Assembly: GCA_963735035.1 (NCBI GenBank)
Contig: CAVTJJ010000006.1
Coordinates: forward strand, 608,001 to 672,000
DNA from: an uncultured candidate division Zixibacteria bacterium
GTDB lineage: Bacteria > Zixibacteria > MSB-5A5 > GN15 > FEB-12
Reading direction: 5' to 3'
Length of the DNA: 64,000 bases
In this document: positions 1-56,847 of the stretch, in pieces
Layout: the number at the start of each line of letters is the position of its first letter
Position numbering within the stretch: position 1 is the first letter of the stretch
The notes under the pieces: generated by a model
What the model was told of the DNA's origin: nothing
Databases searched by the model: none
What the model saw: the letters and a program-made list of their open reading frames with translations, nothing else
Program-made: the position numbers and the translations under genes

Positions 1-118
1 GGGGGTTGTCTTTTTCTCATTCCGGATGCATATTGGAAAATGTCTTCGTTGATGTGGCAATGGCGCGATGCGGTGCGGACGGCGGAATGTCGACCGGGGC
101 GCCGGAAAGGATAAATTC

Positions 119-47650: not shown

Positions 47651-48250
47651 TTACTGTGCCTGCGGCAGGCCCCAGATAGTCAGCATCACCCGACGATTCT
47701 TCGACGCGGCATTCTTTTGATCGGGAAGAGCGACCGGCTTCTCCGCACCGTACGAGTTGATAAACATCCGGAAGAGTGACACGCCGAACTTCTCGGCGAG
47801 GTATCTCCGAGCGGCGTTGGAGCGCTTCTCACCCAGCGTGAGATTGTACCCGGCGCTGCCGGTCTTGTCGGTGTGGCCGACAATTTCAACCAGGGCGTAG
47901 GGAACCTGTTCCAGCTTGGCGCCGGCCTGATCCAATACGGACGCAGCCAGCCCGTCGATCTCGTAGCTGTCGAATCCGAACCTAATTTCGCCGGTCCAGA
48001 TGACCTGGTATTTCTCGAAACCGGAGGCCTTGTTGATGGCCATATCGGTCTTTTCGCCAAGTTGCAGCGCCAATTGTTGAAGCTTCGCCACCTCGGCGGC
48101 GTTGGCATCGGTCTTTTCCTGAAGCGCCTTCACGTCGAGGGCGGTCTTGGCTTCAGAAGTGGCTATCTGCTCTGAAACATATTGTTTATTGACCCCGCAA
48201 GCGCCGAGTAAGAGCAGGGCACACACGCTGAGTATGGTAAGACTTCTCAT
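47651..48250 (-). CDS. OmpA/Pal-like peptidoglycan-binding lipoprotein
   Basis: Lipobox LGAC, coiled coil, FGFDS, GHTDKTG--GYNLTLGEKR, YGAEKP, KNRRV. Confidence 0.92.
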   Translation of the reverse strand: MRSLTILSVCALLLLGACGVNKQYVSEQIATSEAKTALDVKALQEKTDANAAEVAKLQQLALQLGEKTDMAINKASGFEKYQVIWTGEIRFGFDSYEIDGLAASVLDQAGAKLEQVPYALVEIVGHTDKTGSAGYNLTLGEKRSNAARRYLAEKFGVSLFRMFINSYGAEKPVALPDQKNAASKNRRVMLTIWGLPQAQ

Positions 48251-48356
48251 GATGTTCCTTCCTTTCCTTTGGAAAGCAACGGCTTCCTGATATTCGCCGC
48301 TTTATGCTATCGGCCGGTTGAACCCGACGCAAGAGAAAAGTTCACCCTGCCGGACC

Positions 48357-49184
48357 CTATTGTTTGACCGCTCCGGCCGTAATACCCGAAACAATCTGCC
48401 TTTGCATGAACAAAAAGACGATCAATATCGGCACCACCGCGACTGTCGATCCCGCCATAAGATGCGGCCAATCGATGGCCTGATGGCCCTGATAGAGCGA
48501 AAGAGCCACCGGGAGGGTGCGAAGAGACGCGCGCGACGTCAGGATGAACGGAAACAGGAATGAATTCCAGTTAGTGAAGAACACCTGAATTGCCAGCACG
48601 CCCAAGGCCGGTTTGCAGAGGGGCATGACAATGCGGAAGACTATCCGCAACTCGCCGGCTCCATCTACCCGGGCGGCTTCTTCCATCGAAGGCGGCAACG
48701 CCTCGATGTACTGCTTGACGAGAAATATGCCTATCGGATTGACCAGCCAAGGGAGAATCAGCGCCCAATAGCTGTCGTAGATGCCGGCTTTGAGGCAGAT
48801 CAGATAGAGCGGGATGATTACGATATGAATCGGGATCATCAGCACGAACAGAGCGGCCCCAAACAGCAATTTGTGTGTCAGAGTCCGGTAGCGCGCCAGT
48901 CCATACGCGGCCAGGAAACAGAAGACAATATTGCCGAGCGTTACAACACCGCCGACCAATATAGAATTGAACAGCGCCCTTCCAATATCCGCTTGTGTGA
49001 ACAGGTCGCGAAAGTTCTGGAACGTCCAGGTCGATGAAACCAGGGCGCTCAGATCGGTTCCGTCCGACGGCAACATGAACGACACACGAAACATCCAGAG
49101 TAGCGGAAAGAGCATCGTCAGCGCCACCAGGCCCAGTGCGACGTACCGCAACGTCAGAGAGATGGTGCCTTCCCGACCTACCAT
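48357..49184 (-). CDS. Carbohydrate ABC transporter permease (MalG-like)
   Basis: EAA loop MEEAARVDGA, WNSFLFP, RTLPV, GITAGAVK. Confidence 0.93.
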   Translation of the reverse strand: MVGREGTISLTLRYVALGLVALTMLFPLLWMFRVSFMLPSDGTDLSALVSSTWTFQNFRDLFTQADIGRALFNSILVGGVVTLGNIVFCFLAAYGLARYRTLTHKLLFGAALFVLMIPIHIVIIPLYLICLKAGIYDSYWALILPWLVNPIGIFLVKQYIEALPPSMEEAARVDGAGELRIVFRIVMPLCKPALGVLAIQVFFTNWNSFLFPFILTSRASLRTLPVALSLYQGHQAIDWPHLMAGSTVAVVPILIVFLFMQRQIVSGITAGAVKQ

Positions 49185-50050
49185 AAGGGTCTCTTTCTCC
49201 GCAGCAATAAGAATTGAACTATAGAGAAGATTCCAATTATCATAAAGAGGATGTAGGCCGCGGCAGACGCGTACCCCATCCGGAACGCCGTAGTCAACCC
49301 TTGTTCATAAATGTAATAGACACCCGTGGCAGTGTTGAATTTCCCTTTGGTCATTATGAAGATTTCTACGAACACCTGAAATGATTTAATCGAATTGATC
49401 ACAACTACAAAAAGCATGACCGGTCGCAAGAGCGGCAGAGTAATTGAAGAGAACGTCCTTGCCCGAGAGGCCCCTGCTATTTCCGCAGTCTCGTACAGCT
49501 CGTCCGGAATACTCTGCAGGCCCGCGAGGAAGATCAGCATGTAATAGCCGAGGGACATCCAGACATCCATCGCCATTATCGCATACAGAGCTGTACCACT
49601 ATCGTAAAGATACCCGTTGACCGGTGCCTGCAACCCGATCATCTCGGCCAGGAAGGCAATGTAGCCGCCCCGAGAATACAGGTTCGTGAAGATCAGCGAA
49701 ATTACTACGAGAGAGGTAATCGACGGCAGGAAGAACGCCGAGCGAAAGAAGGCTCGTCCCCTAAACTGGCGATTGACCAACAAAGCCATGGCCAAGGACA
49801 AGACAGTCGTAATCGGGATTGTCCAAAGGACGAATACAAAAGTATTCCAGAGTGATGACAGAAAGGCCGGGTCAATCAGGAGTTGACGATAGTTGTCCCA
49901 ACCCACCCATTGGTAGTCAGCCGCAAGGAGGCGGTAGTCGGTGAAACCGATCACGAACGAATAGACTACGGGGAAGGCCCAGAACAAGACGAAAGTGAGC
50001 GTCCACGGTGAAGAGAGACTCAAACCGAGCGACGATCGGGATGACGTCAT
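49178..50050 (-). CDS. Carbohydrate ABC transporter permease (MalF-like)
   Basis: WVGWDNY, FFLPS, LAGLQSIPDELYETAEIAGAS, GYASA. Confidence 0.93.
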   Translation of the reverse strand: MTSSRSSLGLSLSSPWTLTFVLFWAFPVVYSFVIGFTDYRLLAADYQWVGWDNYRQLLIDPAFLSSLWNTFVFVLWTIPITTVLSLAMALLVNRQFRGRAFFRSAFFLPSITSLVVISLIFTNLYSRGGYIAFLAEMIGLQAPVNGYLYDSGTALYAIMAMDVWMSLGYYMLIFLAGLQSIPDELYETAEIAGASRARTFSSITLPLLRPVMLFVVVINSIKSFQVFVEIFIMTKGKFNTATGVYYIYEQGLTTAFRMGYASAAAYILFMIIGIFSIVQFLLLRRKRPLW

Positions 50051-51312
50051 TTCCTGTGGATGTCCGTGATGGTTTTCTGCAATATGCGCAGCGTCTCACC
50101 TGGGAGCGCGTTCTCGAAAAGCACTTTCTCGACCGCTTTTTCGATCTCGGCTTCGATCAGCACCCAGTCAGGATCGACCGGCGGATGCTCGGAAAGATTC
50201 AACTGCATTACAAAAGTCTGCAGATTCGGGTTTGACTGGAAATACTTGTCCTGCTGAGCGGTGCGACTCGACGGATTCGCCGACCGATTGGCTTTGCAGA
50301 ATCGCAGTTGGTTCTCAGGTGAAGTAATAAAATCTATCAGCTTTTGAGCCGCTGCCTGTTGGGCAGACTTGGCGCTAACGGCCAGGAACTCGCCTCCCTC
50401 GAAAGACTTTCCGGGATAGACTGCGGATTGCAACCCGGATACGAATGGGCGACCGGTGCCAAAAGTCGGATCAGGTCCCGGCATTAGACTGGTCGCGAAA
50501 TCGATCTTACGATTCTCCAATTCGATCCGTTTGAGAAGCCAATCGCCCGACATTATGACACCAATCTTCCCATCCAGGAAGGCATCTTCGATACCGCGCT
50601 GATCGGCCACGTAGCCACAGCAATCGTGCAACTTCTTGTAGAATTTGAGGGTCTCGACCGCTTTTTGCGACGCGATCACGCAGTACTTGTTGTCATCGGA
50701 GAAGATATGGCATTTCGCCGACCAGAAGAACGGCATGAATTTCTTGTAAAGCCGATGAGTCTCGGCGGTATTGGAGCCCCAGCCGTAGGTGTTCTTTCCC
50801 AGAGCGGTTACCCTCTGGATAGCGGTATCAAGATCGTCCCAGGAAAGGGGCATGAAATCGCGGGCGTACCCAGCGCGGCCCAACAAGGTGCGATTAAGGA
50901 AGAGGACACGGGTCCCAAGGATCCAGGGTTTGGCATAGATCCTCTCGTTATAGCGGGCCATTGACCAGCCCTGATATTCCAGCTTCTGCGTGGCGACCTG
51001 GTCGGTCAGGTCGGCCAGTTGACCGGTCGCGGCGAATTGGGCAATCCAGTCAGAGCCGAGCTCGACCACGTCTGGAGCCGTCCCCGAAGCGAAAGCGATA
51101 GCAATCTTCTCATTGCCGTTGGCCCAGGTCAGATCGGTCACGTTGACACGAATGCCCGGATTTTGCTTCTGGAATTCTTCGACCATGGACGTAATGGTCG
51201 GTCTGATTTCCGGATCGGTCCAAAATTGCCACCATTCGAGAGTGGTCTGAGCCGAAAGAGCCGGTGCCAGAACGAGACAAATCAGGAACAATATCAAGCT
51301 GCATTGACGCAT
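50047..51312 (-). CDS. Carbohydrate ABC transporter substrate-binding protein
   Basis: Type I signal peptide (ALSA), EFQKQNPGIRV, SGTAPDV, GKIGVIMSGDW; ATG 51312 behind GGAG. Confidence 0.9.
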   Translation of the reverse strand: MRQCSLILFLICLVLAPALSAQTTLEWWQFWTDPEIRPTITSMVEEFQKQNPGIRVNVTDLTWANGNEKIAIAFASGTAPDVVELGSDWIAQFAATGQLADLTDQVATQKLEYQGWSMARYNERIYAKPWILGTRVLFLNRTLLGRAGYARDFMPLSWDDLDTAIQRVTALGKNTYGWGSNTAETHRLYKKFMPFFWSAKCHIFSDDNKYCVIASQKAVETLKFYKKLHDCCGYVADQRGIEDAFLDGKIGVIMSGDWLLKRIELENRKIDFATSLMPGPDPTFGTGRPFVSGLQSAVYPGKSFEGGEFLAVSAKSAQQAAAQKLIDFITSPENQLRFCKANRSANPSSRTAQQDKYFQSNPNLQTFVMQLNLSEHPPVDPDWVLIEAEIEKAVEKVLFENALPGETLRILQKTITDIHRK

Positions 51313-51430
51313 ATTTACATTCTCCACATAGATGGCTCAAGAAGGACCTAACAGTCGCATTGGTCAATTAAAATATCTTTTAGTTGATCGACCCGCTCCC
51401 GGTCTAATCTCTTACAGGGTGGTACATTTG

Positions 51431-52231
51431 ATGCCTGGTGTCATAGTAACGGCCTCCGATCCGGCCTGGATCGATGTTTCCCGGTTGCCGGTTTTGATCG
51501 GGACGGTTCTGGCGGTCGTCATAGTTCTTTATACCACTTATTATCTCCAGGGACGCCGGACCTTCAAGATTCGCGAGATCGCCGGTCTCAAGGCGATTGA
51601 GGAAGCTATCGGCCGGGCCACTGAGATGAACCGCCCCCTGCTATTTACACCGGGGTGGGGGGGCGACATACAGCGACCCACGACATTAGCCTCTATGAAC
51701 ATCCTTAGCCATGTCGCCGAAACCACGGCTCGCTACGACTGCCCGCTGGTCTATCCGACTCACGACCCGGTCATCATGTCTGTCGCGCAGGAGGTAATTC
51801 GCGAGAGTTACACCCGGGCGGGCTACCCGGATCGAGTCAGAATGGATCGAACGATGTATGTCTCGTCGTCCCAGTTCGGTTACGCAGCGGCGGTCGAGGG
51901 AATGATCAGCCGCATGCGGCCGGCGTCGGTCTTTCTGCTTGGGACTTTCGAAGCCGAATCTCTGATCCTGGCCGAGACCGGGAATTCGGTGGGTGCGATA
52001 CAAATCGCCGGTACCGATTCGACTATCCAGCTGGCGTTTTTTATAGTTGCCTGCGATTACACCCTGATCGGTGAGGAGTTGTTTGCCGCCTCCGGATATC
52101 TGTCAGGCGATCAATCAATAGTAGCCTCGGTAAGGGCGCAGGATATTCTCAAAATGGCCATCGCCGCCATCCTGATCATCGCGACCGTCTGGGTCACGGC
52201 TGAACCTGCCTCAACCTGGTGGAATTTCTAA
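51431..52231 (+). CDS. Uncharacterised two-TM membrane protein (recalled as DUF6754-like)
   Basis: TM, then IREIAGLKAIEEAIGRATEMNRP, soluble alpha/beta region, CDYTLIGEELFAASGYL, C-terminal TM. Family name from memory, not searched. Confidence 0.78.
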   Translation: MPGVIVTASDPAWIDVSRLPVLIGTVLAVVIVLYTTYYLQGRRTFKIREIAGLKAIEEAIGRATEMNRPLLFTPGWGGDIQRPTTLASMNILSHVAETTARYDCPLVYPTHDPVIMSVAQEVIRESYTRAGYPDRVRMDRTMYVSSSQFGYAAAVEGMISRMRPASVFLLGTFEAESLILAETGNSVGAIQIAGTDSTIQLAFFIVACDYTLIGEELFAASGYLSGDQSIVASVRAQDILKMAIAAILIIATVWVTAEPASTWWNF

Positions 52232-52854
52232 TGGGGCGGAAACTGCCTCAAATCGTCTGCGGTTTCTTTGGGATTGCTCTGCTGGTCCTGTACTTTTCGA
52301 GCCATCCGACAGCGCGCGCAATCAATCTCGCCGTAATCGAGGACTACTATCAAATCATTTTCGCTTTCACACTGCTGGTCGGGGTGGCCAGTTTTGTCAA
52401 AGTAAACGCCCAGGCCGTTGAACGAGGGGAAGAGCGCCCCTACCGGATAGTCGCGCTGGCCGGTCTGGTAGCAATGCCGACAGTCGCCCTGATCTGGGGT
52501 ATCAAAGGTGACTCTCCGTTTATGTGGCTATTTGATAATGTCCAGGTGCCGCTTCAGGCAACAGTCTTCGCACTCCTGGCTTTCTTTGTGGCCTCGGCTT
52601 CTTTCCGGGGATTTCGCGCTCGTTCTACTGCGGCCGGCGTTCTGTTGGTGGCGGCCGTCCTGACACTCCTGAGTCGCTCCGATCTCGGAATTTTCGGTTC
52701 AGACTATGTTACACCCGTGGCCGATTGGCTGCGGAATAACCCGTCGATGGCGGCCCGCCGGGCCATTCTGATAGGCATCGGTCTGGGGTCACTGACAACC
52801 TCCTTGAGAGTAATTCTGGGCATTGAGCGAACGTGGCAGGGAGGCGGAAGATGA
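52231..52854 (+). CDS. Uncharacterised polytopic membrane protein
   Basis: 207 aa, about 6 hydrophobic segments; ALLAFFVASASFRGFR, RAILIGIGLG; TAATG overlap with the previous gene. Confidence 0.8.
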   Translation: MGRKLPQIVCGFFGIALLVLYFSSHPTARAINLAVIEDYYQIIFAFTLLVGVASFVKVNAQAVERGEERPYRIVALAGLVAMPTVALIWGIKGDSPFMWLFDNVQVPLQATVFALLAFFVASASFRGFRARSTAAGVLLVAAVLTLLSRSDLGIFGSDYVTPVADWLRNNPSMAARRAILIGIGLGSLTTSLRVILGIERTWQGGGR

Positions 52855-53660
52855 ACCTCGACAGCCGCCACTATTGCTTTCTCGGTCTAGGGATTGTGGT
52901 CGTGGTCGCGATGCTGCTTAACGTGCAACCGGTGCAGCAGATATCCGACGAAACCCAGCGCATGTTCAACTATATCGATTCGCTTCCTGAAGGCTCGACC
53001 CTCATTGTCTCGTTCGATCACGAAGCGTCGGCCCTGCCGGAAATTCGTCCTCTCGCGCTGGCTTTCTTGCGTCAGGCGTTTGCCCGCAATCACCGCCTGA
53101 TAGGAATTGCCCTGTTGGCGGAAGGCACTGGTATCGGCTACGGTCTGATGCACCAGGTGGCGGGCGAACATGGGAGGGAATACGGTCGCGATTATGTCTA
53201 TTTGGGCTTCGCCCCACAGTATATAGCGGCGATCCTCTCCATGGGAGAATCGATCAAGCACACCTTTCCGCAAGACTACACCGGGCGGCCCTGGGATAGT
53301 CTTCCCATGTTGCGAAACATCACCAACTACGCCGACGTCGCGGGCGTGGTTTCGATCACCGACGGTTCCATGGTGATGCACTGGGTGGAGTACGGACACG
53401 GTCGTTTCGGGGTAACTATTTCGGCATTTGTCGCCGCGGCAATGGCAACGACCTACGATCCATATCTGGCTTCAGGTCAGATGCGGGCGATGGTCAGCGG
53501 ACTTCGCGGCGCCGCCGAGTACGAGCAGTTGATCGGCATCGGCGGTTCCGGAGCGCGGGGGATGCTGGCTCAATCCGCGATGCATCTGTATGTTATCGCC
53601 CTGATCGTGATCGGCAACGTGATCTATTTCAAGAGACGGCGGCAGGGAAGGGGAGCCTGA
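52851..53660 (+). CDS. Uncharacterised two-TM membrane protein, probable distant paralogue of 51431-52231
   Basis: TM - soluble domain (YGRDYVYLGF, PYLASGQ, GLRGAAEYEQL) - TM; ATGA overlap. Confidence 0.8.
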   Translation: MNLDSRHYCFLGLGIVVVVAMLLNVQPVQQISDETQRMFNYIDSLPEGSTLIVSFDHEASALPEIRPLALAFLRQAFARNHRLIGIALLAEGTGIGYGLMHQVAGEHGREYGRDYVYLGFAPQYIAAILSMGESIKHTFPQDYTGRPWDSLPMLRNITNYADVAGVVSITDGSMVMHWVEYGHGRFGVTISAFVAAAMATTYDPYLASGQMRAMVSGLRGAAEYEQLIGIGGSGARGMLAQSAMHLYVIALIVIGNVIYFKRRRQGRGA

Positions 53661-54271
53661 TGGACCTGACTACGGTTCTGGGGGCGATTCTCACTCTGGC
53701 GGTGCTATCTTTCCTGTACCGCGATAATCCGTTCTACAAAGTAGCGGAGTCGTTACTTATCGGACTCTCTATCGGCTACGTGCTGGTAATGACCTGGACT
53801 AACACGCTGATGGCGCGATTAATCGTACCGCTGTTCGAAGATGCCCGACTGGCGTTGATTATTCCGTTCGCGCTCGGGCTGCTGATGTTCGGTCGGTTCC
53901 ACTCCAGGACCGCTATCTGGTCGCGAATTCCGATTGGACTGCTAATCGGTTCCGGCGCCGGTGTAGCCATTCCGGCGATGCTTGGTGCCCGAACCATGAC
54001 CCAAATGTCATCGACAGTTCAGCCGCTTTGGGGCGAGGGCGTATTCAACTTCTCAGCGGTTGTCGTCCTGTGCGGCGTGCTCTGTACGCTCGCCTATTTC
54101 TACTTCACTCGGGAACACCGGGGGGCGTTTGGTCGGGTGGCCAGGACCGGCACCTGGTTTCTGATGATCTTCTTTGGCACCACTTTTGGCTACACGGTTA
54201 TGTCAAGAATGTCCACTTTGATCGGCCGGGTGGAGTTCCTTCTGGGCGACCTTTTACACCTCCTGCGATAA
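53660..54271 (+). CDS. Uncharacterised polytopic membrane protein with internal repeats
   Basis: 203 aa; SFLYRDNPFY, three GxxxG-ending helix pairs; TGATG overlap. Confidence 0.82.
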   Translation: MDLTTVLGAILTLAVLSFLYRDNPFYKVAESLLIGLSIGYVLVMTWTNTLMARLIVPLFEDARLALIIPFALGLLMFGRFHSRTAIWSRIPIGLLIGSGAGVAIPAMLGARTMTQMSSTVQPLWGEGVFNFSAVVVLCGVLCTLAYFYFTREHRGAFGRVARTGTWFLMIFFGTTFGYTVMSRMSTLIGRVEFLLGDLLHLLR

Positions 54272-54403: not shown

Positions 54404-54549
54404 CCTGAAACTCTCCGGCGCAATTTTCCGTACTATACCTCGAATTTCGGTACTAAGCTCAAGTAGTAACTTCGATGAACAACTGGGGGCTTTTGCCCTG
54501 TTTTTAGGCTGGGAGTCGCGTGAAAATCCGGTTCCGGCCCCGATTTTGG

Positions 54550-54577
54550 TTGACGCTACTCGCTTGTTTAGTAAACT
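54550..54577 (+). promoter_or_regulatory. Possible sigma70-type promoter for the ABC exporter operon
   Basis: TTGACG-N16-TAAACT about 25 nt upstream of ATG 54603. Confidence 0.45.
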
Positions 54578-54602
54578 ACTCAACTTATATGCAGGAGTGC
54601 CA

Positions 54603-55532
54603 ATGCATTTGAAGCTGGAAAATATCAGCAAGCAGTACGACGGCAAAATAGCCGTGGAAGACCTCTGCCTGGAAGTCCCGAAAGGGGTTATCTACGGCAT
54701 GATCGGTCCCAACGGCGCCGGTAAGACCACGACCATCAGAATGGTCATGGATATCGTCCCGCCCGACTCGGGACGGGTCCTCATTGAGGGGCGCGAAGCC
54801 GACGGCCCGGCTCGCGACCGAATCGGCTACTTGCCCGAAGAGCGGGGCCTCTACAAGAAATTCACCCTCCGTGAAGTCATCACTTATCTGGCCGAACTAA
54901 AGGGATGCCCCAAAGCGGAAATCAGTCGGCGCATCGGTCCCTGGCTGGAACGCATGAATCTCAAGGAATATGAACTGAAGAAGGTAGAAGAGCTGTCCAA
55001 GGGGATGGCCCAGAAACTCCAGTTCATCACCACTGTTCTGCACGAACCCGACATTGTCATACTTGACGAAATCTTCTCCGGCCTCGATCCGATCAACATC
55101 GAAGTCGTGAAAGATGTCTTGCTGGAGCTGAAGCGTAAAGGCACGACCATCCTGTTTTCGACACACGTCATGGAGCAGGCCGAGAAGTTGTGTGACCACA
55201 TTTGCATGATCTCGCGCGGGCACAAGGTTCTCGACGGCCGCATCGGCGATATCAAGACACGATTCGGACGTAATTCGGTACAGATGTCATTTGAAGGTGA
55301 TGGCCACTTTATAAAGACCCTCCCGGGTGTCAAAGAGGTTAGGGAGTTCAACACTTACGTGGAACTTCAACTGACCGGCGAAGTGCCGCCTCACGAACTA
55401 CTGAAAGCCGCGGTAGAGCGGCTCAAGGTGAGCCGGTTCGAAGTCATGGCGCCGTCGCTGTACGACATCTTCATTGAGCAGGCCAAGGTCGATCCGGCTG
55501 AGCTCAATCAGAAGGGAGAACACCATGCGTAA
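54603..55532 (+). CDS. ABC-2 type exporter ATP-binding subunit (NatA/YhaQ-like)
   Basis: GPNGAGKTT, GYLPEERGLY, LSKGM, ILDE, STH; AGGAG RBS. Confidence 0.94.
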   Translation: MHLKLENISKQYDGKIAVEDLCLEVPKGVIYGMIGPNGAGKTTTIRMVMDIVPPDSGRVLIEGREADGPARDRIGYLPEERGLYKKFTLREVITYLAELKGCPKAEISRRIGPWLERMNLKEYELKKVEELSKGMAQKLQFITTVLHEPDIVILDEIFSGLDPINIEVVKDVLLELKRKGTTILFSTHVMEQAEKLCDHICMISRGHKVLDGRIGDIKTRFGRNSVQMSFEGDGHFIKTLPGVKEVREFNTYVELQLTGEVPPHELLKAAVERLKVSRFEVMAPSLYDIFIEQAKVDPAELNQKGEHHA

Positions 55533-56847
55533 ATTCTGGGTGATTCTCCAGCGCGAGTACGCACAGCTCGTACACAAGAAGTCGTTCTTGTTTACCACAC
55601 TCCTGACACCCGTACTCATGGTCGTTATGATGTTCCTGCCTGCGTTCCTGATGCAGAAGGGTTCGAATACCACCGAAGTGTACTCGGTCATCGATCTGGA
55701 CGGCCATGGCCTCGGTCGCGAACTCACGAACGGCGTTGCAAGCTACAAGCTTAGCGATACCTCCAAAGCGGCGTTTCGGCTCGACCGCCTGGAAGAGATT
55801 CCCGCGTCAGATACGGCTCGGTTTGGCGAAACCTACCGCCACCTGGTGCAGTGCATCCGGGACAGCGGCCTTACTTATCTCTTCGTGATCAAGCCGAATG
55901 CGTACCTTGCGGATTCCAACCTGCTGCTGGTGACGAACTCGGACAATATTCGCGCTATAGGCCGGTTTGAATCTCAACTCGGCCAGGTGCTGTCGCGCCG
56001 ACGAGTCGAAGTCAGTGGGATCAACATTCCCATCGATTCGATCATGGCGCTCACTCGGAGCGTAGACCTGCCCCGTCAGGACACGAAGGGTGAATCGGTC
56101 AGCCCTGAGATCAAGTTCATGTTCGGCATGGTCCTGATGATGTTGATCTATATGCTAATTTTGATCAACGGACAATGGATGATGCAGGCGGTGATCGAGG
56201 AGAAGTCGGCGCGAATCATGGAAGTGTTGGTTTCTTCGGCTACGCCATTCCAAATTATGGCCGGCAAGATTTTCGGAAGCGGCCTGGCCGCTCTCACCCA
56301 GGTAGCTATCTGGATCGCCGGCGGCGCGGCCATGATGGCATTCGCATCGTCGACCGGAACCCAGATCGATCCGTCGATCACAAAGGTCGTGTTCAATCCG
56401 GCTACGATCATCTGTTTCGCCGCTTTCCTTGTCCTGGGCTACCTGCTGTTCTCGACTATCTTCGCCTTTGTCGGCTCCCTGGTTAACAGCACCAAAGATG
56501 CTCAGCCTCTGATGATGCCGATTATTGTAGTCTTCTTCATTCCGGGTATGATGATCGGCATGGCAGCGTTGCAGATGCCCGACGAGGGATGGATTCGAAT
56601 AGTGTCGTTCATCCCGACTTACGCACCTCTGGTGATGATGATAAGAGTGGCGATACTGGCGCCCAGTTTTGAGGGCAATCCGCTGCTGTCACCCATCATG
56701 CTGGAAGCTGTCATTAGCATGATCGGCATCGTGATAGCATTGGTAGGGGCGGTATGGGTTACGGGACGCGTGTTCCGGATAGGGATTCTCATGTACGGCA
56801 AGCGACCGACGCTACCGGAAATCATGCGCTGGATAAGGCACAGTTAA
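55525..56847 (+). CDS. ABC-2 type exporter permease (NatB/YhaP-like)
   Basis: REY--LVHKKSF, large extracytoplasmic loop, VIEEKSARIMEVLVSS, GKIFG, FRIGILMYGKRP. Confidence 0.92.
   Translation: MRKFWVILQREYAQLVHKKSFLFTTLLTPVLMVVMMFLPAFLMQKGSNTTEVYSVIDLDGHGLGRELTNGVASYKLSDTSKAAFRLDRLEEIPASDTARFGETYRHLVQCIRDSGLTYLFVIKPNAYLADSNLLLVTNSDNIRAIGRFESQLGQVLSRRRVEVSGINIPIDSIMALTRSVDLPRQDTKGESVSPEIKFMFGMVLMMLIYMLILINGQWMMQAVIEEKSARIMEVLVSSATPFQIMAGKIFGSGLAALTQVAIWIAGGAAMMAFASSTGTQIDPSITKVVFNPATIICFAAFLVLGYLLFSTIFAFVGSLVNSTKDAQPLMMPIIVVFFIPGMMIGMAALQMPDEGWIRIVSFIPTYAPLVMMIRVAILAPSFEGNPLLSPIMLEAVISMIGIVIALVGAVWVTGRVFRIGILMYGKRPTLPEIMRWIRHS

Follow-up and report, generated by a model that had tools for sequence, protein, structure and literature searches.

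Opposite predicted membrane orientation and no detectable homology of two helix-domain-helix proteins in a four-gene operon of Zixibacteria

Two proteins of one operon

Four tightly packed genes on the + strand (positions 51431-54271 in the open reading frame (ORF) listing) of a 64,000-nucleotide stretch of DNA from an uncultured candidate division Zixibacteria bacterium (assembly GCA_963735035.1, contig CAVTJJ010000006.1, positions 608,001 to 672,000; the whole stretch is referred to as the window) raise a question about the origin of orientation in membrane proteins. The first and third genes of this row encode proteins of nearly the same length, each with a domain set between two transmembrane (TM) helices. 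The original prediction, made on this DNA without database searches, held them to be hidden paralogues lying in the membrane in opposite orientations. Do the two domains face opposite sides of the membrane, and do they come from one ancestor? The answer is divided: the opposite orientation stands, on charge statistics and domain architecture, while the paralogy fails to show itself in any sequence test. That the two proteins combine opposite topology with an absence of detectable kinship is, in our judgment, very probable. The parts of the two genes that enter into the argument are the following.

51431-52231, + strand: gene 1 (subunit A), 266 amino acids, DUF6754, helix-domain-helix (ORF, Pfam and AlphaFold2); in order, a short acidic N-terminal tail, TM1, a Rossmann-like domain, a highly conserved hydrophobic/acidic segment, TM2 and an uncharged C-terminal tail.
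51476-51544, + strand: TM1 of gene 1 (residues 16-38), read as an N-out signal anchor (model helix 16-38, hydrophobic window 16-34).
51551-51574, + strand: basic cluster GRRTFKIR of gene 1, right behind TM1.
51575-52105, + strand: loop domain of gene 1 (residues 49-225), Rossmann-like, predicted cytoplasmic.
52112-52201, + strand: C-terminal TM helix of gene 1 (residues 228-257; model, hydrophobicity and family statistics).
52851-53660, + strand: gene 3 (subunit C), 269 amino acids, helix-domain-helix; N-terminus predicted inside, then TM1, a Rossmann-like domain (predicted periplasmic), a conserved glycine-rich segment, TM2 and a basic tail.
52863-52916, + strand: TM1 of gene 3 (residues 5-22; model, hydrophobicity and family statistics).
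52938-53540, + strand: loop domain of gene 3 (residues 30-230), Rossmann-like, predicted extracytoplasmic.
53547-53630, + strand: C-terminal TM helix of gene 3 (residues 233-260; AlphaFold2 model), with His245 nearly invariant and Asn256 invariant.
53631-53657, + strand: basic tail KRRRQGRGA of gene 3.

Opposite predicted orientation

The charge pattern from which the original prediction had read opposite orientations is present in both proteins. In gene 1, GRRTFKIR follows TM1 and the C-terminal tail, VTAEPASTWWNF, has neither lysine nor arginine; in gene 3, the 12 residues after TM1 hold no basic residue, and the protein ends in KRRRQGRGA. The pattern extends to the families of the two proteins, and it is this extension, together with the architecture of longer family members, that bears out the opposite orientation at the level of prediction. 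Lysine plus arginine (K+R) was counted in the 15-residue flanks of the TM helices of non-identical relatives, with these mean values.

Gene-1 family (n=116): 0.25 before TM1, 5.13 after TM1, 1.90 before TM2, 0.65 after TM2.
Gene-3 family (n=222): 3.24 before TM1, 1.75 after TM1, 1.88 before TM2, 3.63 after TM2.

The side of the domain is the richer in K+R in every gene-1 relative (116/116), and the side of the termini is the richer in 197 of the 222 gene-3 relatives.

Longer members of both families point the same way. The genome holds four other copies of gene 1, and three of these (T1-T3) open with a stretch resembling a signal peptide and carry an Fn3 domain ahead of TM1. This domain was recognized through titin Fn3 (E 4.6e-6) and, with a score of 20.9 bits that misses the cut-off of 25 (E 4.4e-4), through Pfam fn3. 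An exported Fn3 domain ahead of TM1 would place the start of the loop domain of these paralogues in the cytoplasm. Paralogues of gene 3 with one or two extra N-terminal helices retain a basic 'DRR' loop before the domain-proximal helix, on what would be its cytoplasmic side, and one relative (P0317) contains a CARDB domain (E 1.1e-6) within a 550-amino acid insert in the loop domain, which would place the gene 3 domain outside. The domain of gene 1 is thus most likely cytoplasmic and that of gene 3 most likely outside the cytoplasm, as far as such an assignment can be read from sequences.

Inserts of 80-550 residues are found in the domain of longer gene-3 relatives (among P0241-P0390), and the family has two hot spots of insertion, one following residue 130 or so of the domain and the other immediately ahead of the last TM helix.

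Sequence comparison of the two proteins

The likeness that suggested paralogy is real in its outlines: the lengths of 266 and 269 amino acids are those of the + strand ORFs, and the TM-domain-TM layout common to both is reproduced by both AlphaFold2 models. All six peptide strings that the original prediction had paired by eye are also present (gene 1 residues 139-158, 212-224 and 236-253; gene 3 residues 113-131, 214-227 and 240-257). The pairings themselves are at the level of chance. Scored with BLOSUM62, the three alignments reach 9, 6 and 30, while the best window of matching length in comparisons of gene 1 with shuffled gene 3 has a mean score of 26-27; scores as high as the three observed are attained by 100/100, 100/100 and 18/100 shuffles, respectively. 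Nor do the three pairs share a diagonal, the first being offset by +26 residues and the others by -2 and -4.

Comparison of the whole gene 1 and gene 3 proteins by BLASTP yields nothing better than E 9. The original prediction had held that paralogy falls if the profiles of the two families lack significant similarity, and for sequence profiles none was found, which leaves the claim unsupported. With orthologue-only profiles of 28 sequences each, hhalign returns a probability of 0.3%; with widened profiles it returns 2.1%. The widened gene 1 profile is made up of 120 sequences from five paralogue classes of one phylum (number of effective sequences (Neff) 2.4); that of gene 3 draws on 223 sequences (Neff 4.7), 118 of them representatives with 26-50% identity to the protein of the window. 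The piece aligned by the widened profiles matches TM1 and the basic stretch of gene 1 to TM2 and the basic tail of gene 3. When TM1 is removed and only the domains are compared, the best segment, which pairs the C-terminal helices, scores 22.2, and the next, which pairs residues 88-142 of gene 1 with residues 69-117 of gene 3, scores 18.6; reversed-profile controls reach 19.5 and 19.3. A search of all ORFs of the genome with hmmsearch --max is equally bare: the gene-3 hidden Markov model (HMM) finds one gene-1 ORF at E 7, which is the noise level, and the gene-1 HMM finds no gene-3 ORF at E<=10.

Family assignments also keep the two proteins apart. Gene 1 is a member of Pfam DUF6754 (PF20539; E 5.4e-94, 314.5 bits with a cut-off of 27), its residues 11-258 aligning to profile positions 3-249 of 257. 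Genes 2, 3 and 4 have no matching Pfam or NCBIfam model, and in the Pfam search gene 3 has no DUF6754 match at E<=1. DUF6754 is also absent from the best 25 of the 46 Pfam families that 118 diverse gene-3 relatives match at E<=10, and the 30 nearest Atlas clusters of gene 1 and of gene 3 contain only the protein's own family and not the other. The gene-3 family is large, the 50%-identity library containing 3782 representative clusters of it at E<=0.001; none of the 150 of its representatives that were listed has a domain of gene 1, 2 or 4 fused to it, no search aimed at longer or shorter forms having been made. Profile searches of the PDB match nothing to genes 2, 3 and 4, and for gene 1 match only the Fn3 extension of its paralogues. 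Taken together, these comparisons strongly indicate that genes 1 and 3 are not detectably homologous, and that what they share is their build and a fold class that is very widespread.

Genes 2 and 4 were considered as a second hidden pair and rejected (hhalign probability 0.7%).

Predicted structure and conservation

The structural models strongly indicate that each protein is a hairpin, with a single Rossmann-like alpha/beta domain carried between its two membrane helices. The gene 3 model is good, with a mean predicted local distance difference test (pLDDT) score of 83. Both modeled domains have the three-layer alpha/beta/alpha arrangement of a Rossmann-like fold, which is the commonest of the alpha/beta folds; in each, strands and helices alternate to build a parallel sheet, and solved Rossmann-like domains are among the structural matches. 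Against 48,161 PDB representatives, the lists of the top 50 structural neighbors of the two models have a single chain in common (3oj0_A), and the match values of both lie near the level that the tool gives for models that have no true relative. Foldseek finds no PDB match to gene 1 at E<=0.001. The common fold class of the two predicted domains is real but generic, and the domains may still have a distant ancestor in common. The top rows of the Foldseek comparison of gene 3 with the PDB, G protein-coupled receptor constructs fused to a Pyrococcus glycogen-synthase domain, were set aside as an artefact of matching membrane helices plus a Rossmann fold.

Conservation is not centered on the Rossmann core in either protein. 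The best-conserved part comprises the C-terminal membrane helix and the stretch that leads up to it. Conservation has a peak at residues 171-220 in gene 1 and peaks at residues 111-120 and 191-260 in gene 3; these regions may be surfaces that contact the polytopic subunits encoded by genes 2 and 4. The peak segment of gene 1 is acidic and hydrophobic, and its residues C208, D209, E215 and E216 are invariant. Gene 1 also has an invariant helix, IAGLxAVxEAIGRATEM, ahead of strand 1; the equivalent helix of gene 3 is poorly conserved. The stretch at window positions 51947-52093 (gene 1 residues 173-221) is the most conserved of DUF6754, with block conservation of 0.86-0.96, and coincides exactly with the stretch of the gene 1 model in which pLDDT is below 50. 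This segment may touch a partner protein or lie embedded in the membrane.

The four-gene unit

The two remaining genes of the operon encode polytopic proteins and alternate with genes 1 and 3.

52231-52854, + strand: gene 2 (subunit B), about 207 amino acids from the ATG at 52231, polytopic, about six hydrophobic segments.
53660-54271, + strand: gene 4 (subunit D), 203 amino acids, polytopic, conserved motifs YRDNPxYK and FSxEHxG.

Stop and start codons overlap at all three junctions, as TAATG (gene 1 stop and gene 2 start), as ATGA (with the gene 2 stop codon at the gene 3 boundary) and as TGATG (with the gene 3 stop codon at the gene 4 boundary), and translational coupling is the usual meaning of such overlaps. 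An alternative GTG start for gene 2 lies open at 52219; Met-5 of the resulting longer ORF is nearly invariant across the gene 2 family, in which the motif ASASxRxFRAR is invariant as well. The sequence AGGGTGG lies upstream of the gene 1 ATG at 51431. A database protein identical to gene 1 over its 266 amino acids exists, and the names of the database relatives are those of Zixibacteria.

The window genes have every mark of the four-gene unit: all four families are there, tightly packed on a single strand and arranged 1-2-3-4. When 115 related loci are scanned with the HMMs of the four families, 63 have the complete order 1-2-3-4 and 51 a partial but consistent one (the row being cut off by the end of the locus or running on into the next tandem unit); the order in the window is the order of all related loci long enough to show one. 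The sole locus with a differing order of ORF starts (L042, 1-3-2-4) probably owes it to an over-long ORF start. In the genome, family HMMs run over all ORFs find each of the four families exactly five times, and every copy belongs to one of five cassettes. The four cassettes other than that of the window are distributed as follows.

C4:1203395-1214807: three cassettes, head to tail (L003, L001, L004).
C4:446213-449216: one cassette (L002).

The gene-1 proteins of these four cassettes are 292-533 amino acids long, and it is those of the three tandem cassettes that have the signal-peptide-like start and the Fn3-like extension. They score 374-405 bits with the DUF6754 model (314 bits for gene 1 of the window), and the window protein differs from the genome's other DUF6754 copies in lacking an exported N-terminal extension. 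DUF6754 is present in all of the 121 genomes of the phylum that were searched, mostly with 4-6 matches in each, and the Atlas records related clusters in several bacterial phyla, with Bacillota, Planctomycetota and Chloroflexota among the names, and in archaea. The Pfam DUF6754 cassette is catalogued and uncharacterized, and a search of a literature library found no paper that names DUF6754 or PF20539. With gene 1 far above the family cut-off, the window cassette is one more ordinary member of this catalogued, unstudied four-subunit membrane unit.

A working model and its alternatives

These facts about the two proteins and their operon make it probable that genes 1 and 3 specify distinct subunits (A and C) of a conserved inner-membrane unit with four subunits, A-B-C-D, encoded in a translationally coupled operon. 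In such a unit the polytopic subunits B and D would form the membrane core, onto which A and C would each dock by a conserved C-terminal module, from opposite faces. Subunit C would present a binding or receptor domain to the outside, decorated in some relatives by adhesion-type inserts, and subunit A would present a platform to the inside, on which a single GlmL/MutL-type actin-fold protein may act. The result would be a modular transport or signaling machine. The transport-machine part of this model is tentative, and we think it somewhat unlikely.

A number of observations weigh against the model, or against the reading of the two proteins on which it is built. The topology of both rests on the positive-inside rule and on the logic of domain architecture, and among the 222 gene-3 relatives the charge bias is reversed in 5 and tied in 20. 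The AlphaFold2 model of gene 1 is of poor quality, with a mean pLDDT of 63.7 and values below 50 across residues 173-221, and the hydrophobic, acidic segment formed by these residues could be in the membrane, which would alter the picture of a 'soluble' domain. The gene 1 profile is that of a single phylum, its Neff of 2.4 limits its reach, and a very old duplication could escape the sequence tests. Both models run through a like order of secondary structure (a helix, 5-6 strand-helix units, a conserved helix, the TM helix); such an order would also be expected of true remote relatives, as would weak collinear segments in hhalign. As to what the unit does, there is no ATPase motif, solved relative or paper that points to a function, and no actin-fold gene adjoins the window cassette itself, whose neighbors are ABC (ATP-binding cassette)-transporter genes.

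These points are best weighed together with the other explanations that the locus admits. The one from which the analysis set out is that genes 1 and 3 arose by duplication of one TM-domain-TM ancestor and that one copy was inverted in orientation, so that homologous domains came to lie on both faces of the membrane in an antiparallel arrangement like that of RnfA/RnfE or EbrA/EbrB. The equal build, nearly equal length and same order of secondary structure speak for it, as do the Rossmann-like character of both domains, the opposite charge bias, the conservation that in both proteins is greatest just before and within the C-terminal helix, the alternation of the two genes with two polytopic ones in a single operon, and the collinearity of the two best domain-only hhalign segments (88-142 with 69-117, followed by the C-terminal helices). 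Against it, no similarity is significant in BLASTP, in hhalign with its reversed-profile controls, in HMM cross-hits, in Pfam or among the nearest Atlas clusters; the by-eye alignments score no higher than chance, conserved positions fail to match up (the invariant helix of gene 1 facing a poorly conserved one in gene 3), the top-50 structural neighbors share only 3oj0_A, and genes 2 and 4, which duplication of a whole unit would also have made a pair, show nothing. We consider an inverted duplication unlikely.

It has also to be asked whether the charge bias misleads and both loop domains lie on the same side of the membrane, as they would if, for example, residues 195-225 of gene 1 formed a further membrane span. 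The gene 1 segment IQLAFFIVACDYTLIGEELFAASGYL is hydrophobic, has many invariant positions and is not confidently modeled; in all five paralogues it nonetheless stays under the hydrophobicity cut-off that was applied to the other helices, and the loop leading from it to the last helix has a mean K+R of 1.90, compared with 0.65 for the C-terminal tail. The exported Fn3 domain ahead of TM1, which would fix the domain start of the gene-1 paralogues in the cytoplasm, and the CARDB insert, which would put the gene 3 domain outside, count against a common side too, and we regard it as very improbable. That the four genes are mere neighbors and form no single complex, genes 1 and 3 specifying independent membrane-anchored enzymes or sensors, is hard to reconcile with four families that are equal in number in the genome (five each) and occur there only together, with the one order kept across the loci examined and with the overlaps at all three junctions; it is very unlikely. 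A complex prediction for the four subunits with gene 3 as partner scored 0.73 (runs of 0.77, 0.73 and 0.73), and the score stayed at 0.73 when an unrelated protein replaced gene 1; it therefore counts neither for nor against binding between genes 1 and 3. Two different subunits of one four-subunit membrane unit, turned opposite ways, are the reading that we prefer.

Comparison with known systems

The inverted-topology pairs RnfA/RnfE, NqrD/NqrE, EbrA/EbrB and the EmrE-type small multidrug resistance proteins are clearly homologous polytopic proteins that have no soluble domains. Genes 1 and 3 resemble them in lying in one operon and in having similar lengths and an opposite charge bias, hence an opposite predicted orientation. 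They differ in having no detectable homology, and in having only two membrane helices each, the bulk of each protein being a soluble domain that is predicted to fold on a different side of the membrane from the other. Membrane-tethered Rossmann-like modules with which they can be compared are domain III of transhydrogenase, the RCK/KTN modules of the Trk/Ktr potassium systems, and TeaD, the universal stress protein of the tripartite ATP-independent periplasmic transporter TeaABC.

If subunits A and C did stem from an inverted duplication, the unit would have a two-fold axis in the plane of the membrane that takes in the soluble domains on both faces, an arrangement that is known for no dual-topology pair. 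The fuller version of this idea, in which A and C go back to the ancient duplication and inversion of a single helix-Rossmann-helix protein and the four-gene unit with a single actin-fold GlmL/MutL-type ATPase makes up a new class of modular transport machine, we hold to be distinctly unlikely. The unit is in every genome of the phylum that was searched. None of its subunits has a relative that has been solved or studied, and a family model exists for one of the four. A complex whose two faces carry domains of similar appearance would be instructive for the evolution of membrane-protein orientation.

The actin-fold gene

The gene for the actin-fold protein lies beside the three tandem cassettes and is divergent from them.

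C4:1201040-1202899 (L116:3041-4900), - strand: actin-fold gene, 619 amino acids, PF13941 MutL/GlmL-type (E 5.9e-128).

It is of the same family as the methylaspartate mutase accessory protein GlmL (GlmL/MutL, PF13941). It differs from GlmL in its length of about 620 amino acids, as against 450 model positions, in scoring below the NCBIfam GlmL equivalog cut-off (237 as against 475), and in having no mutase genes that could be seen beside it. The PF13941 family is present, usually once, in 120 of the 121 genomes of the phylum, and in at least 50 of the 121 a PF13941 gene is found no more than 5 kb from a DUF6754 match, a lower bound read from the printed coordinates of the 150 DUF6754 matches listed out of 579. 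The co-occurrence of the two families is without discriminating power, because nearly all genomes of the phylum carry both. The actin-fold gene is followed by one for a 260-amino acid protein with a weak PsbP-like match.

Neighboring genes

Upstream of the window cassette and divergent from it, on the - strand at positions 47651-51327, lies a sugar-type ABC operon with genes for a binding protein and a pair of permeases, the row containing none for an ATPase; the same interval and strand also include a gene for an OmpA-like lipoprotein. The divergent binding-protein gene is found upstream in all of the 80 loci that are orthologous to the window cassette, and the two permease genes in 71 and 66 of them. 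Counts from a scan for promoters and terminators were not above those of shuffled sequences; a weak terminator-like hairpin after gene 4 (54484-54500) and a promoter-like site (54550-54577) both lie between the cassette and the ABC genes downstream of it. These, an ABC ATPase and an ABC-2 type permease at 54546-56847 on the + strand, are present in 42 and 40 of the 80 orthologous loci, many of which end earlier.

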